64,000 nt of DNA, taken from Escherichia coli. GTDB lineage: Bacteria > Pseudomonadota > Gammaproteobacteria > Enterobacterales > Enterobacteriaceae. The notes under the pieces were generated by a model, which saw only the letters and a list, made by a program, of their open reading frames with translations, did not search any database and was not told where the DNA came from. Below are positions 48,201 to 52,607 of the stretch, piece after piece. How positions within the stretch are numbered: position 1 is the first letter of the stretch; every line of letters begins with the position of its first letter. A program made the translations under genes and the position numbers. Location of the stretch: the NCBI RefSeq assembly GCF_016026235.1, contig NZ_CP065613.1. One strand, given 5' to 3'.

Positions 48201-48492
48201 TGGCTGTCTCCTGAAAAATCACCGCATGCCCCAGTTTCTCCGCCAGCGCCAGTTCTGCCTTAGCGCCTGCTGACCGCTGCCAGCCTTTCAGCATGTAAAT
48301 CGCATCCACACAACGAATCATCGCCATGCAGATATCCATGTACTGCGGCTGTGTCAGCCCGTCCGGAAGTACTGCCGGGTTTAAGACGGTATGCCCTTCC
48401 CGTTTCAGTTCCTCTTCCGCATTGTGAAACGCCTCACGGTTGAAATTTTTATACCCGGTCATTGGACCGGCGATATAGACTCTCACCCTCAC
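48187..48492 (-). CDS. DUF4406 / nucleoside 2-deoxyribosyltransferase-like protein
   Basis: 101 aa, N-terminal YIAGPM motif typical of the fold. Confidence 0.55.
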   Translation of the reverse strand: MRVRVYIAGPMTGYKNFNREAFHNAEEELKREGHTVLNPAVLPDGLTQPQYMDICMAMIRCVDAIYMLKGWQRSAGAKAELALAEKLGHAVIFQETASVQD

Positions 48493-48911
48493 GCCATCAC
48501 CTCCTGAAAATTACCCTGATAAAACGACAATATGCGCTGCATAACTTCGCTCTTCCGGCACTCGCGACAGATTATGTTTAGGCGACTGTCGTAGCGACGT
48601 ATTTCTCCGTCAGGTAATGACCAGATAAGGTCCGGATCAACCGCAGATGGTTTCTTCAGCTTTGCCCTTGAGAGCTTTTTACGGGCATTTTGCCAGTCCT
48701 TACGCGCCTGTTCAGACGGGAATAACCCGTAACCAGAGTTGTATACATCGCCACTGGCAACCAGCTCTCTGGCCAGAACGCTCATCAGATATCTTGTTGC
48801 CCCAGTTTTAGCTTCCAGTTGTCGTAACGTCTCGCGCCCACTCTGGCGTACGAGTTCAAGAACCTGCCCTTTAATTTTTTCCCGCTCTTCTTGTGTAAAA
48901 ACTTTTGCCAC
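48489..48911 (-). CDS. hypothetical phage protein
   Basis: 140-aa ORF translationally coupled to downstream gene. Confidence 0.45.
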   Translation of the reverse strand: MAKVFTQEEREKIKGQVLELVRQSGRETLRQLEAKTGATRYLMSVLARELVASGDVYNSGYGLFPSEQARKDWQNARKKLSRAKLKKPSAVDPDLIWSLPDGEIRRYDSRLNIICRECRKSEVMQRILSFYQGNFQEVMA

Positions 48912-48951
48912 AAGCCCTCCTGAAAATTACCTCATGACCAGAAATTAACAC

Positions 48952-50115
48952 TTACCCCCTGAAGCCCGGCGGAATTTCGTTATCCGGTTCAGAAATATGA
49001 TTCACACAACGCTGGTTGTTCGTGCCGCTTACCGGGAGCAACCAGGGGTTCTCAAAATTCCGGTCCGGTCCAAAAAACGTCGTCGCTCGCTGAACAAATT
49101 CCGTTCCCGTTTTCCCGGTAGCCGCCAGGTATCTTGCGTAACGCCTCACGCCATCCAGCATGGCCTCTGGTGGCACCCCCTCGCGTAATCTGGCCTTCCA
49201 GGCACTGAAAGCGGATTTCTTCGGGTTTGCCCCGGCACGCAACGGGTACTCCCGCCAGACCTGTTCGAACACATCCGGATAATCCACTCGTCCCACAGAC
49301 TGCCCGGTGTTTTCCGGGACTACCCGATCGGCTTCCCGCTGAATGGCGGAATCGGCTTCAGGCTGCTGCAGTTGGTGTGATTGCTCCGGACTTGCGGTCA
49401 TCACCTGCTGCACAGCGCCCGAATCGGCTTTCAGCGCATACGCTGAATCGGCTTCCGGTGTCGTGCCTGCTGGCTGACCTGGCTCGACGGTCTGAACATC
49501 CCCCGCCTGGTTCGTGGCGATTTTTTCGCCATGAACCATAGTGTTTTTGTCCTGTTCCTGTTCTTTCTCCTGTTCCTGTTCTTGGCTTCGAAGCCCCTTT
49601 AAAGCCCCTTCGAAGCCCCTTACCGTATTTCGGTTGTTATTTCGCCTTACATCCAGATGAAAATCCGTCTTATATCTGTCATAAAACGCTGAAAGAAAAG
49701 CGTTTTCAGGTAATGACGCATATTCACTCCTGACACCTGCACAACGGTTATCGCCAGGCTTTAACTTTCCCCCAACCTGCCAGGCTGCCATTTCATGGAC
49801 CCAGACCATCTCGGAATCATGGTCATAACTGCAAAAACCCACTTCGACAGCCCTTCGAAGCCCCTTCGAAGCCCCTTCCGGACCAAGCCCGGTTTCATGA
49901 GCAAGGTACAAAACCGGCAGGTAATACAGGCCCAGCATGTTTGCGTGAGGGGATGTCATCAGGTAAAAAGCAACCACCTGCGCTTCTGCGCCTGCCTTTC
50001 TGAGTTCTTTCCCCGTTTCTCCCAGCCAGAATCGCGGGGAAACTTTTGCGTAATCACGCATGTCCACCTCATCTGGTGCCGAACCTTCCTCCGGATATAA
50101 TCTGTGATTCCCCAA
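48952..50115 (-). CDS. phage replication initiation protein (O-like), iteron-like repeats inside
   Basis: 387 aa; two clusters of 11-bp-spaced GAAGCCCCTT(C) repeats at 49586..49625 and 49845..49875; position in early right operon. Confidence 0.5.
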   Translation of the reverse strand: MGNHRLYPEEGSAPDEVDMRDYAKVSPRFWLGETGKELRKAGAEAQVVAFYLMTSPHANMLGLYYLPVLYLAHETGLGPEGASKGLRRAVEVGFCSYDHDSEMVWVHEMAAWQVGGKLKPGDNRCAGVRSEYASLPENAFLSAFYDRYKTDFHLDVRRNNNRNTVRGFEGALKGLRSQEQEQEKEQEQDKNTMVHGEKIATNQAGDVQTVEPGQPAGTTPEADSAYALKADSGAVQQVMTASPEQSHQLQQPEADSAIQREADRVVPENTGQSVGRVDYPDVFEQVWREYPLRAGANPKKSAFSAWKARLREGVPPEAMLDGVRRYARYLAATGKTGTEFVQRATTFFGPDRNFENPWLLPVSGTNNQRCVNHISEPDNEIPPGFRG

Positions 50116-50282
50116 TCAACAGAACCAGAGGAGGTTCGACATGTCTTTTTTGAAAAGCCTTTATCGGGCTCATATATTAAAAGTTGCAGCAACAAATCAC
50201 TGGCAAGAAGGAACAGATGAAATGTTGCCGGATTACCGGGCATGGCTGCGCGCCGAAACATACCTTCGTCTCGATATGCTGA

Positions 50283-50792
50283 TTAACGATCTTCAAAAAG
50301 AGGCTCCATCCACTCAAACCCTTCAGGGTGTCGGCGCTGTTCGCGTTCTGGTATCTCGCCATAACGCTCTCTCAGTAACTGAAGTGCGTCAGCTTTCTTT
50401 TGCTGAACTGATTTTCTTGCTTCAGCCAGCTCTGGAATCAGTGAATATCCCATCGGAGGTGTTCCGGTATCCGCCCCACGTGAACCAACAGCTACAAGCT
50501 GCACAAGACAACAGGCATGCTGGATTGACTCCCTGCTCAGAGGCTGAATGGGATCATTCTCTGCTGAAGAGATACCAAGATTTGTATAATCCTCAATAAG
50601 CCGGGCGCACGCTTCAGCATCAGCCAGTTTTTTTCTGGTTTCCTTGCGCTGTTCTCTGACGGACAAACGCCAGAGCAGCGCATTGGCTTTATGCATCAGC
50701 CACTCTGCCAGTTCCACATCAGATAAACCGCCACGCCAGATGTGTGGACTGTTTTCGTAAACGCTCAGTGTCAGTTTTTTGTCATTGGTCAT
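50283..50792 (-). CDS. hypothetical early protein
   Basis: 169 aa from ATG 50792 following ydaT-like gene; overlapping plus-strand ORF 50141..50599 is the alternative. Confidence 0.4.
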   Translation of the reverse strand: MTNDKKLTLSVYENSPHIWRGGLSDVELAEWLMHKANALLWRLSVREQRKETRKKLADAEACARLIEDYTNLGISSAENDPIQPLSRESIQHACCLVQLVAVGSRGADTGTPPMGYSLIPELAEARKSVQQKKADALQLLRERYGEIPEREQRRHPEGFEWMEPLFEDR

Positions 50793-50805
50793 ATTTATTG
50801 CCCCG

Positions 50806-51231
50806 TCAATGCACAGCCAGAGTATTTCCTGCCGGACCACCACGATTCATCTGATCGAACAGAACGATCGCTGATGCAACGAAATCATCGATATCTTTCA
50901 CCAGCTGTTCCTGCGTCTCCAGCAGTTCCCGAAAATAAACTGAACTGTGGCTGCGCATTCGGGCCACCAGCGGAGGCGGCATTGCCTTTTCGATCGCTGG
51001 TAACAACGCCTGAATTTTTTTAACAGCATCAGGGGTGTCTTTCTCTATCCAGCGGAAAATTTTCTGGGTATTGCGAGCCAGGGCTTCCGGATGGCTGTCG
51101 TCGTACAGTTCAGGGAACGTCATCCCCAGTTCGAAATAAGTCCGGGCTATCTCAGCCGCCGGAACTTTCTCACCATCAGGATATGCCCATGCATTCATCG
51201 CCATACGGATGTGCTCATGCTTGATTTTCAT
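50806..51231 (-). CDS. YdaT-like protein (Rac prophage family)
   Basis: 141 aa, N-terminus MKIKHEHI as recalled for YdaT. Confidence 0.6.
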   Translation of the reverse strand: MKIKHEHIRMAMNAWAYPDGEKVPAAEIARTYFELGMTFPELYDDSHPEALARNTQKIFRWIEKDTPDAVKKIQALLPAIEKAMPPPLVARMRSHSSVYFRELLETQEQLVKDIDDFVASAIVLFDQMNRGGPAGNTLAVH

Positions 51232-51491
51232 GAATCACCCCCCGCCGATGGTTGTGTGTTAGCCTGAAACTCAGCAGGCAAGCCGTCAGTTGGGTTGGGG
51301 TAGGTTTTACTGTCAATCTCATGTGGGGTCACCACCCATCCCGTTGCTTCACACCAACGTAATATTTTTTCTCCTGTAAGTTTTGCACGCCCCGTTATAA
51401 CGTGGCTGACCATCCCCTGGGATGCGCCAACAATCTCAGCAAATGAACTCTGGGTTATATGAAAATGATGCAAATATTCTCCAAGATTCAT
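51228..51491 (-). CDS. Cro/YdaS-like HTH regulator
   Basis: 87 aa from ATG 51491, HTH (QSSFAEIVGASQGMVSHV), divergent from repressor. Confidence 0.65.
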   Translation of the reverse strand: MNLGEYLHHFHITQSSFAEIVGASQGMVSHVITGRAKLTGEKILRWCEATGWVVTPHEIDSKTYPNPTDGLPAEFQANTQPSAGGDS

Positions 51492-51527
51492 AATCCGCCC
51501 TATGTGATGTGTTACCAACGCATAATT

Positions 51528-51568: not shown

Positions 51569-51602
51569 CAAAGTGATTAGCAATCTTATTAGAATTGGAT
51601 GT

Positions 51603-52103
51603 ATGAAAAGAAAATCACTGTCAGACACCGACCTCAACGCCGCCAGAAGACTGAAAGAAATCTGGATGGCAAAGAAATCTCAGTTGGGATTGACTCAGGA
51701 ACGTGCGGCGGAAATTATGGGGTTTTCAACACAAGGGGCGGTAAGTCACTACCTAAATGGTCAAACCCCACTAAACCTTGAGGCTGTTCTAAAGTTTGCT
51801 GGCTTACTGAAAGTTCCCCCTGAGTCAATCAGGCCAGACATGGCAGATTTGCTGCAAATTGCAAGGATGTATTGTCGAGAACCACAGCAAGATAACATAG
51901 TCGCATTACCAGCAGACACAGAACAAACAGAGGATGAACTACCGTTTGCCGTAGAGCCGATGGAACGAGATTTAATCCATACGTTCAGAGCTTTTCCGAA
52001 AGAAGATCAAGAACACATGCTTCAGGAGATGAAAGATAAAAAAGAATCAATGGATCGTACGGTTGCGCGGTGGTTAGCTGCACAAAAAGGCCGTCGCGCC
52101 TAA
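51603..52103 (+). CDS. XRE-family HTH repressor (RacR/PaaR2-like)
   Basis: 166 aa from ATG 51603, N-terminal HTH (LTQERAAEIMGFSTQGAVSHYL). Confidence 0.7.
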   Translation: MKRKSLSDTDLNAARRLKEIWMAKKSQLGLTQERAAEIMGFSTQGAVSHYLNGQTPLNLEAVLKFAGLLKVPPESIRPDMADLLQIARMYCREPQQDNIVALPADTEQTEDELPFAVEPMERDLIHTFRAFPKEDQEHMLQEMKDKKESMDRTVARWLAAQKGRRA

Positions 52104-52122: not shown

Positions 52123-52317
52123 ATGAGTACAGTCCTTTCCCCAATGGTTTCAGAATTTGAGACAGTTGAGCAAGAAAATAGTTACAACGAATGGCTGCGG
52201 GCCAAAGTAGCAGCAAGCCTCGCGGATCACCGCCCGGCGATTCCGCATGATGAGGTAATGGCGGAAATGGAACAAATTATTGCCCAAATTGCTGCTGCAA
52301 CTCACAGAGGTGAATAA
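52123..52317 (+). CDS. type II antitoxin (PaaA2-like)
   Basis: 64 aa acidic protein immediately upstream of and overlapping ParE-like toxin. Confidence 0.65.
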   Translation: MSTVLSPMVSEFETVEQENSYNEWLRAKVAASLADHRPAIPHDEVMAEMEQIIAQIAAATHRGE

Positions 52318-52607
52318 TGTTACCCGTTTTATGGCTACCATCTGCTCGTGATGATTTGCGCCAGATCGTAGCCTACATAGCTAAAGAAAATCCCGCGGCA
52401 GCACGCAGAATGAAAATTCGAATTGAAACATCCGTTTTGCCGCTCACAGAGCATCCTTACCTGTATCCTCCAAGCGAGCGAGTTCTTGGTCTTCGTGAAA
52501 TTGTAACTCATCCTAACTACATCATCCTTTACCGAGTAACAGCATCAAGCATAGAAGTAGTAAATATTGTGCATTCTCGAAGACAGTATCCAGGCAAAAA
52601 CAGTTAA
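52317..52607 (+). CDS. ParE/RelE-family type II toxin
   Basis: 96 aa, RelE/ParE-like sequence features, 1-bp overlap with antitoxin. Confidence 0.7.
   Translation: MLPVLWLPSARDDLRQIVAYIAKENPAAARRMKIRIETSVLPLTEHPYLYPPSERVLGLREIVTHPNYIILYRVTASSIEVVNIVHSRRQYPGKNS

Follow-up and report, generated by a model that had tools for sequence, protein, structure and literature searches.

A candidate replication origin inside the initiator gene of an Escherichia coli prophage

The DNA analysed here, called the window throughout, is a stretch of 64,000 nucleotides (nt) of Escherichia coli (assembly GCF_016026235.1, contig NZ_CP065613.1). It includes the early region of a prophage, in which a minus-strand replication initiator gene carries two clusters of a 9-bp direct repeat (the boxes) within its own coding sequence, with an AT-rich stretch between them (Table 1). 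We asked what these repeats are and whether they could be part of a replication origin that lies inside the gene of its own initiator.

Table 1. Features of the initiator gene and its surroundings (positions in the window; aa, amino acids)
Feature	Position	Strand	Remarks
Replication initiator gene	48952-50061	-	369 aa from the ATG at 50061; the open frame reaches a TTG at 50115 (387 aa)
N-terminal domain	49567-50061	-	aa 1-165; winged helix-turn-helix at aa 25-88 (nt 49798-49989), then helices to aa 134
Proximal box cluster	49842-49877	-	Exact boxes at 49858 and 49869, degenerate unit at 49842-49852; aa 62-73 (EGASKGLRRAVE)
AT-rich stretch, candidate DNA unwinding element	49622-49725	.	Adjoins the distal cluster, between the clusters
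Distal box cluster	49586-49621	-	Three exact boxes at 49591, 49602 and 49613; aa 147-159 (VRGFEGALKGLRS)
Linker repeats QEQEQEKEQEQ	49546-49585	-	(CAGGAR)n tract, family-wide
C-terminal module	48952-49547	-	96-98% identical to phages with another N-domain (Tritos, Evi, others)
DUF977/Ren-like gene	48489-48911	-	Next gene downstream of the initiator
cII/YdaT-like gene	50806-51231	-	
cro-like gene	51228-51518	-	
Repressor-like gene	51573-52103	+	

Results

Two phased clusters of a 9-bp box

An earlier note on this DNA had described repeats with a spacing of about 11 bp, in two clusters 250 bp apart, within the coding sequence of an early protein of 387 aa. A repeat finder bore this out and returned one family of 11-bp period in two clusters, with the earlier coordinates right to within a few bases. 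Both clusters lie inside the minus-strand open reading frame (ORF) 48952-50115. They are 256 bp apart from start to start, with a gap of 220 bp, and the start-to-start spacings within the family are 11, 245, 11 and 11 bp. On the plus strand, the left (distal) cluster is composed of CTTCGAAGCCC, CTTTAAAGCCC and CTTCGAAGCCC followed by CTT, and the right (proximal) cluster of a degenerate unit, CTTCGACAGCC, and two exact units. The repeat unit is a 9-bp box, AAGCCCCTT on the plus strand and AAGGGGCTT on the coding strand, repeated with a period of 11 bp.

Every one of the four copies of the exact 11-mer CTTCGAAGCCC in the 64 kb falls in the two clusters. The box itself has five exact copies in the window against 0.51 expected, a count reached in 0 of 100 shuffles, and box pairs 9-13 bp apart (at most 1 mismatch) are confined to the two clusters. 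When up to 2 mismatches were allowed, the 11-mer was found 16 times in the window vs 16.8 expected, without excess; because this search is uninformative, we rely for the signal on the exact copies and on how they are phased. The repeats are thus real and non-random. A second origin in the window, comparable to oriR of SPP1, was considered and rejected, since phased boxes occur nowhere else in the 64 kb.

The same box recurs at the same gene positions across the family

A search with the N-terminal domain (N-domain) found 616 detectable relatives, fused to unrelated C-terminal parts. The N-domain is 45-78% identical from Enterobacteriaceae to Rhizobium and belongs to no Pfam family. We compared 80 viral loci and 61 species-dereplicated genome loci (Raoultella, Proteus, Acinetobacter, Burkholderiales, Xanthomonadales, Rhizobium), numbered with the prefix L where single loci are named. 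In most of them the 9-mer recurs at fixed places in the gene, as a forward pair at nt ~185 and ~196 and as two or three further boxes at nt ~430-466 (the distal cluster of the window occupies gene nt 441-473), and the GC content of the loci that carry it ranges from 38 to 68%. The proximal boxes at nt ~185/196 were found in 44/57 diverse genomes and in 59/59 distinct viral sequences, and at least two boxes in each cluster were found in 39 of the 57 diverse genome sequences. In the 61 genome loci, 142 exact boxes fall within gene nt 150-520 (6.27 per kb) vs 12 elsewhere (0.043 per kb), and neighbouring boxes are spaced by 11 bp in 107 pairs, by 10 bp in 2 and by 12 bp in 6.

The arrangement varies in orientation. 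All 59 distinct enteric viral sequences have the direct arrangement of the window, with two forward proximal boxes and two or three forward distal ones (>> / >> or >> / >>>), and the commonest patterns in the diverse genome set are >> / << (17) and >> / <<< (9), with mixed orientations also seen. The gene is widespread: it is present at least in part in 2603 of 5426 complete E. coli genomes, with most of the gene in 546, and the family also occurs in 'Eru4'-type Shiga toxin (Stx) phages and in temperate phages of Klebsiella, Acinetobacter, Ralstonia and Shigella.

The number of boxes is not fixed either. In a Desulfobacteraceae metagenome-assembled genome (L142), the proximal cluster has grown to four boxes (< > > >, gene nt 180-222) through an insertion in the encoded peptide (QSPSEGASEGLSRGFKGG), and box number can therefore rise at the expense of the protein sequence. 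Extra iterons are reported for Stx phages, with which this expansion may be compared.

The boxes are constrained as DNA

The peptide encoded by the proximal boxes, EGASKGL, is conserved in homologues and nearly invariant at aa 62-68, and many of them have a similar peptide at aa ~150-158. The earlier note had named a conserved repeated peptide as what would refute an origin function, and we therefore compared, in 43 genes, the codons used at the EGASKGL site with those that encode the same amino acid in the rest of the domain. The box codon dominates at every position: GAA for Glu (93% at the box, 55% elsewhere), GGG for Gly (95% vs 25%), GCT for Ala (76% vs 19%), AAG for Lys (100% vs 58%) and CTT for Leu (79% vs 12%). 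Rare codons are used, and these synonymous sites are the most frozen of the domain in 53 homologous genes from Escherichia to Rhizobium. The Ser of the box is always TCN, and its third base, which falls between two boxes, varies freely (TCG 22, TCA 9, TCT 3, TCC 2). Because the genes are related, the Fisher p-values of this comparison overstate independence; we therefore added a ranking of 100 conserved degenerate codon columns in the 53 genes, in which all columns have one tree in common. The box columns (aa 62, 63, 66, 67, 68, 151-153, 155, 156 and 159) rank top, with a mean modal-codon fraction of 0.87 vs 0.58 (p = 3e-4).

The distal cluster can lie on either strand. In Stx-type phages that are 77% identical, the left cluster is reverse-complemented (GAAAGGGGCTCTGAAGGGGCTTC) and the peptide CRKIEAPSEPLSS replaces VRGFEGALKGLRS. 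Family-wide, the distal cluster is forward, reverse or mixed and EGASKGL-like and EAPSKPL-like peptides alternate, the former encoded by the box and the latter by its reverse complement, both read in the same frame. Moreover, five Acinetobacter loci (L091, L096, L110, L112, L131) have one or two boxes in non-coding DNA, 11-37 nt before the initiator start codon, directly upstream of the Shine-Dalgarno sequence and 11 bp apart where there are two. These upstream boxes suggest autoregulation of the initiator gene in that lineage. A repeated peptide thus fails as a sufficient explanation, given the frozen synonymous sites, the strand-flipped distal cluster with its changed peptide and the non-coding copies; to judge from these comparisons, the boxes are under DNA-level selection independent of the peptide.

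The boxes travel with the N-domain

The initiator gene is a mosaic. Many phages and E. coli genomes match the window at 48952-49547 alone, with 96-98% identity, and differ in the 5' half of the gene. The joint lies at ~49547, at the QEQEQEKEQEQ linker and right beside the left cluster, so that the N-terminal module includes the AT-rich stretch as well as the two clusters. In phage Tritos (L004), which shares the C-terminal module at ~97% identity, the N-domain is unrelated (hhalign probability 0.1%) and the box AAGGGGCTT was not found in the initiator gene. Its initiator gene instead has CGTGAC five times (3137-3183) and four times (3407-3443), with 10-11 bp spacing and the clusters 260 bp apart. 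Here too, the distal cluster abuts a linker, a DKDT repeat encoded by TCTTTATCTGTA three times. As N-domain and repeats are both exchanged and the layout is kept, the repeats change together with the N-domain. These sequence comparisons indicate that the boxes travel with the N-domain and not with the C-terminal module, and the Tritos repeats are probably a second, unrelated in-gene origin of the same layout. The Tritos protein matches no Pfam family, and its annotation as 'replisome organiser N-terminal' was thus not confirmed.

Several other sequence elements surround the joint. A linker SQEQEQEQ, encoded by (CAGGAR)n (SKEKEKEK in Rhizobium), follows the distal boxes in nearly all members (L085-L142, gene nt ~470-520), and this conserved low-complexity DNA may be a recombination joint for the exchange of N-domain/origin modules. 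Just past the linker, a palindrome at 49508-49548 (+) has a 13-bp stem and then a T-run (TGGTTCGTGGCGA TTTTT TCGCCATGAACCA TAGTGTTTTT). It is terminator-like on the strand antisense to the initiator, lies within the coding sequence (MVHGEKIATNQ) and is preserved, through compensatory base changes, in four variants (T>C with A>G in PhiR5_2, A:T>T:A in Tritos). This palindrome could be part of the origin, as lambda too has one close to its AT-rich region, or an antisense terminator. A second repeat, GAATCGGCTTC or a near variant, occurs at 49326, 49349, 49421 and 49445 (together 49326-49457), without further copies in the window, and encodes (E/K)ADS peptide repeats of the C-terminal module. Its coding-strand form, GAAGCCGATTC, equals a reverse box with two changes, and the repeat could be either a degenerate box or a peptide repeat.

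The N-domain is predicted to be a winged helix

The N-domain was modelled with AlphaFold2 from an alignment of 45 sequences. The model is confident (predicted local distance difference test, pLDDT, 85) and has an alpha-beta-alpha-alpha-beta-beta fold that can be superposed on known winged helix-turn-helix domains. Its elements are a helix at residues 25-36, a strand at 45-47, helices at 50-57 and 60-74 and strands at 77-80 and 85-88, followed by more helices. Helix 60-74 is encoded by nt 49840-49884, which span the proximal cluster. By topology it is predicted to be the recognition helix, and the proximal boxes would then encode it. Residues 145-165, in contrast, are disordered in the model (pLDDT < 50); the distal cluster encodes this segment, and its peptide can therefore change when the box flips. 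From the constant association of domain and box, we infer that the N-domain binds the boxes of its own gene.

The AT-rich stretch

An AT-content scan, which the earlier note had proposed as a way to find an adjacent unwinding element, revealed a candidate. GC content dips to 35-37% between the clusters, beside the left one. The segment 49622-49722 has 37.6% GC vs 54.4% for the gene, and 49625-49725 are the gene's least stable 100 bp. A modest GC trough of -0.06 to -0.09 occurs family-wide at the same gene position (50 loci).

The initiator gene and its neighbourhood

The protein matches PHROG 1701 and 3729 ('DnaD-like helicase loader' and 'replication initiation protein'), with E-values of 6e-143 and 5e-137, and no Pfam family at E < 0.01. 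Its final 24 aa show a weak similarity to the DnaT C-terminus (E 9.5e-4, a score under the family cut-off). The true start is probably the ATG at 50061: it has the Shine-Dalgarno sequence GAGGTG, it is the annotated start of homologues, and residue 19 is the first that the PHROG matches cover. The gene order of the window is that of a lambdoid early region, with the initiator in the lambda 'O' slot after the cI-, cro- and cII-like genes.

What follows the initiator differs among relatives. The downstream gene encodes a DnaC/IstB-like ATPase in Raoultella, Proteus, Acinetobacter, O157 and Stx-type phages, a DnaB-like helicase in Caballeronia and Stenotrophomonas, and a lambda-P-like protein in Janthinobacterium (L115 is one relative with such a gene); in the remaining relatives it is DUF6475 or unknown. 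These varied downstream replication genes, together with a PF09524 domain in some relatives, place the gene consistently in an initiator or replisome-organiser slot. The earlier note had taken the host gene for a replication initiator, and the PHROG matches, the 'O' slot and the loader or helicase genes downstream in relatives agree with it. In an O157 prophage, PhiR5_2 and Shigella phage 75/02 (L001-L003), genes for a DnaC-like ATPase and DUF1627 lie between the initiator and the DUF977 gene; the window (48489-48952) and phage Tritos are without these two genes.

A scan for promoters and terminators gave no promoters above shuffle expectation. Upstream of the initiator, two ORFs on opposite strands, 50141-50599 (+) and 50283-50843 (-), share ~317 bp and both have family support: the former exceeds the NCBIfam cut-off of NF033230, 'ECs1072 family phage-associated protein' (100.6 bits vs 70), and the latter matches PHROG 8304 (E 1.7e-91). 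Either one of them is a mis-call that has spread into a family, or they are a true antisense gene pair. Just past the repressor gene, a RelB/RelE-type toxin-antitoxin pair at 52123-52607 (+) encodes 64 and 96 aa with overlapping stop and start codons; the O157 relative L003 has the same pair annotated.

Discussion

A candidate origin within the initiator gene

What is the function of the boxes? We consider it likely, on the strength of the sequence comparisons, that the two clusters are iterons for the winged-helix N-domain of the initiator and that, with the AT-rich stretch between them, they constitute the replication origin of the prophage. In such a mechanism, the initiator would be produced after induction from the early rightward-type operon, and its monomers would bind the 9-bp boxes, whose 11-bp spacing would bring neighbouring proteins to approximately the same side of the DNA. 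Bridging or wrapping could then unite the two arrays in a single nucleoprotein complex, next to which the AT-rich stretch 49622-49725 would open. The variable C-terminal module would recruit the helicase. The stretch would thus be melted by the initiator complex, and replication would start here.

Several observations weigh against an origin at this site. One or both clusters are missing in some divergent members, and a replacement repeat was not found there: a co-variation check of five loci without canonical boxes (L137, L140, L144, L145, L126) gave no clear replacement, and co-variation of box and helix was not seen. The proximal boxes lie within an invariant peptide, where protein and DNA constraints act jointly. 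The AT-rich stretch is no more than moderately unstable, with 2.5-6% of window segments at least as unstable, and the family-wide GC trough may simply reflect conserved F/Y/K/N/D residues. No DnaA box (at most 1 mismatch) and no IHF consensus were found in 49300-50250, and there is no helicase-loader gene after the initiator in the window, with no DnaC-, DnaB- or P-like gene downstream; in Tritos likewise, the initiator is not followed by a loader or helicase gene. Finally, binding or origin firing is not reported for any family member in the literature searched, from which subscription journals were mostly absent, and within the same scope a search for the box motif returned unrelated primers alone and no description of this box or origin.

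Could the boxes serve another purpose? The initiator might bind them as operators or roadblocks for autoregulation, the true origin lying elsewhere. Iteron-plasmid initiators commonly autoregulate via such sites, and the Acinetobacter box pairs right upstream of the Shine-Dalgarno sequence occupy a typical operator position, so that an operator role is a serious candidate for those copies. In the window, however, the promoter has no cluster and both are found within the coding sequence, 185-470 nt into it, the two-cluster layout and the adjoining AT-rich stretch are conserved, and the 64 kb hold no other phased boxes that could act as origin; we therefore regard autoregulation without origin function as improbable, bearing in mind that the two functions are not mutually exclusive. 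Nor does DNA-level conservation by itself identify the reader, which could be a host factor, a packaging or recombination protein or another phage regulator. Such a reader seems quite unlikely to us, because the N-domain is the sole constant partner of the boxes from Rhizobium to Escherichia while C-terminal modules and neighbouring genes vary, because a swapped N-domain comes with a swapped repeat (Tritos), and because the box does not fit the consensus of DnaA or of IHF.

Alternatively, the clusters may not be protein sites at all. In most non-enteric relatives they are mutually inverted, and ~20 nt could pair into a long-range stem as single-stranded DNA or mRNA. But the direct repeats of the window and of all 59 distinct enteric viral sequences cannot pair, orientations are mixed elsewhere, Rfam gave no family at E <= 1, and the strict 11-bp phasing and the non-coding upstream copies fit protein binding; a structural role is thus very improbable. 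There is even less to be said for repeats that merely mirror the repeated peptide EGASKGL, with no function as DNA. The near invariance at aa 62-68 and the similar peptide at aa ~150-158 of many homologues would fit, but this reading would leave unexplained the frozen synonymous sites and rare codons, the invariant TCN of a Ser whose third base is free, the boxes in non-coding DNA and a distal peptide that sits in a disordered linker and turns into EAPSKPL exactly as the reverse-complement box predicts. It can practically be set aside, and an initiator-bound origin remains the reading that we favour.

A further idea concerns the proximal boxes alone. At 49858-49877 they code for EGASKGL (aa 62-68), where the predicted recognition helix begins, and if this helix reads the boxes, the origin would be self-referential. 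We put this forward tentatively and think it rather doubtful. A change in a box would then alter site and reading head together, which could explain why the 9-mer is frozen from Rhizobium to Escherichia; iterons normally diverge quickly along with their initiators. Such an evolutionary lock of a cis site to its trans factor would, if true, be one not described before.

The analysis provides a candidate origin and recognition sequence for an initiator family whose N-domain has no Pfam family. Frozen synonymous sites, EGASKGL/EAPSKPL strand flips and the co-exchange of repeat and N-domain together make a clean signature for in-gene phage origins, which could find them in further phages, Tritos being a second example. 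In practical terms, recoding or codon optimisation of the initiator gene would destroy the presumed origin.

Comparison with known systems

Among Stx phages, a close counterpart is Shigella phage 75/02 Stx, of the 'Eru4' replication-region type (PMC8951638). It has the same N-domain at 78% identity and both box clusters, and differs from the window in the strand of its distal cluster, which is inverted, and in the DnaC-like gene after the initiator. The Eru papers classify replication regions by their genes and are silent on origins and iterons.

Iteron origins of theta plasmids (pPS10, F, R6K, RK2) combine a winged-helix Rep protein, phased direct repeats and an AT-rich DNA unwinding element, and in RepA_N plasmids the origin lies inside rep. 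The window shares with theta plasmids the helically phased direct repeats, a (predicted) winged-helix initiator and an AT-rich neighbour. It differs in its 9-bp boxes, against 17-22 bp, in the missing DnaA box (49300-50250) and in that the element is a temperate phage of a family with few plasmid occurrences. The RepA_N structures 4pta and 4pt7 are weak Foldseek matches of the model, which are not significant (E 0.13-0.19, probability 0.89/0.54).

In phage SPP1, oriL is embedded in gene 38, where repeated 'AB boxes' are bound by G38P and adjoin an AT-rich unwinding element; G38P is assigned to PF09524 (PMC5737612). As a sequence architecture, the arrangement is the same as in the window, with repeated boxes and an AT-rich stretch embedded in an organiser gene, and a C-terminal PF09524 (Phg_2220_C) domain occurs in several members of the family (P0089, P0044, others). 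The window protein itself, however, has no PF09524 match, its N-domain belongs to a different, un-named family, the family's hosts are Proteobacteria whereas SPP1 is a Bacillus phage, and the box sequence differs.

A close parallel is lambda, to which the earlier note had already likened the locus because lambda's iterons lie within O; in-gene repeats under DNA-level selection fit that likeness, and the moderately unstable AT-rich stretch next to them may do so as well. The lambda origin lies in the middle of O, with iterons bound by the O product and an AT-rich tract (PMC7466680). In the lambda record, four contiguous 18-bp iterons occupy nt 349-433 of the O gene, a position similar to that of the distal cluster in the window. 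Lambda and the window, as well as the lambdoid Stx phages 933W and P27, have repeated (putative) initiator sites inside the initiator's own coding sequence. Other common features are a modular initiator, with an N-terminal DNA-binding and a C-terminal recruiting part, and the gene order cI-cro-cII-initiator with a Ren-like gene downstream. In contrast to lambda, the boxes of the window are 9 bp long, are spaced by 11 bp and form two clusters with a 220-bp gap; one cluster lies inside the winged-helix coding region, and a DUF977/Ren-like gene takes the place of a P-like loader gene downstream. Membership in the lambda O family was rejected, since the protein has no PF04492 (Phage_rep_O) match and its profile, compared with lambda O by hhalign, gave a probability of 0.3%. 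The locus is thus most likely, to judge from these comparisons, an in-gene phage origin like those of lambda O and SPP1 G38P, but one that belongs to an unrelated, uncharacterised and widespread family of initiators.

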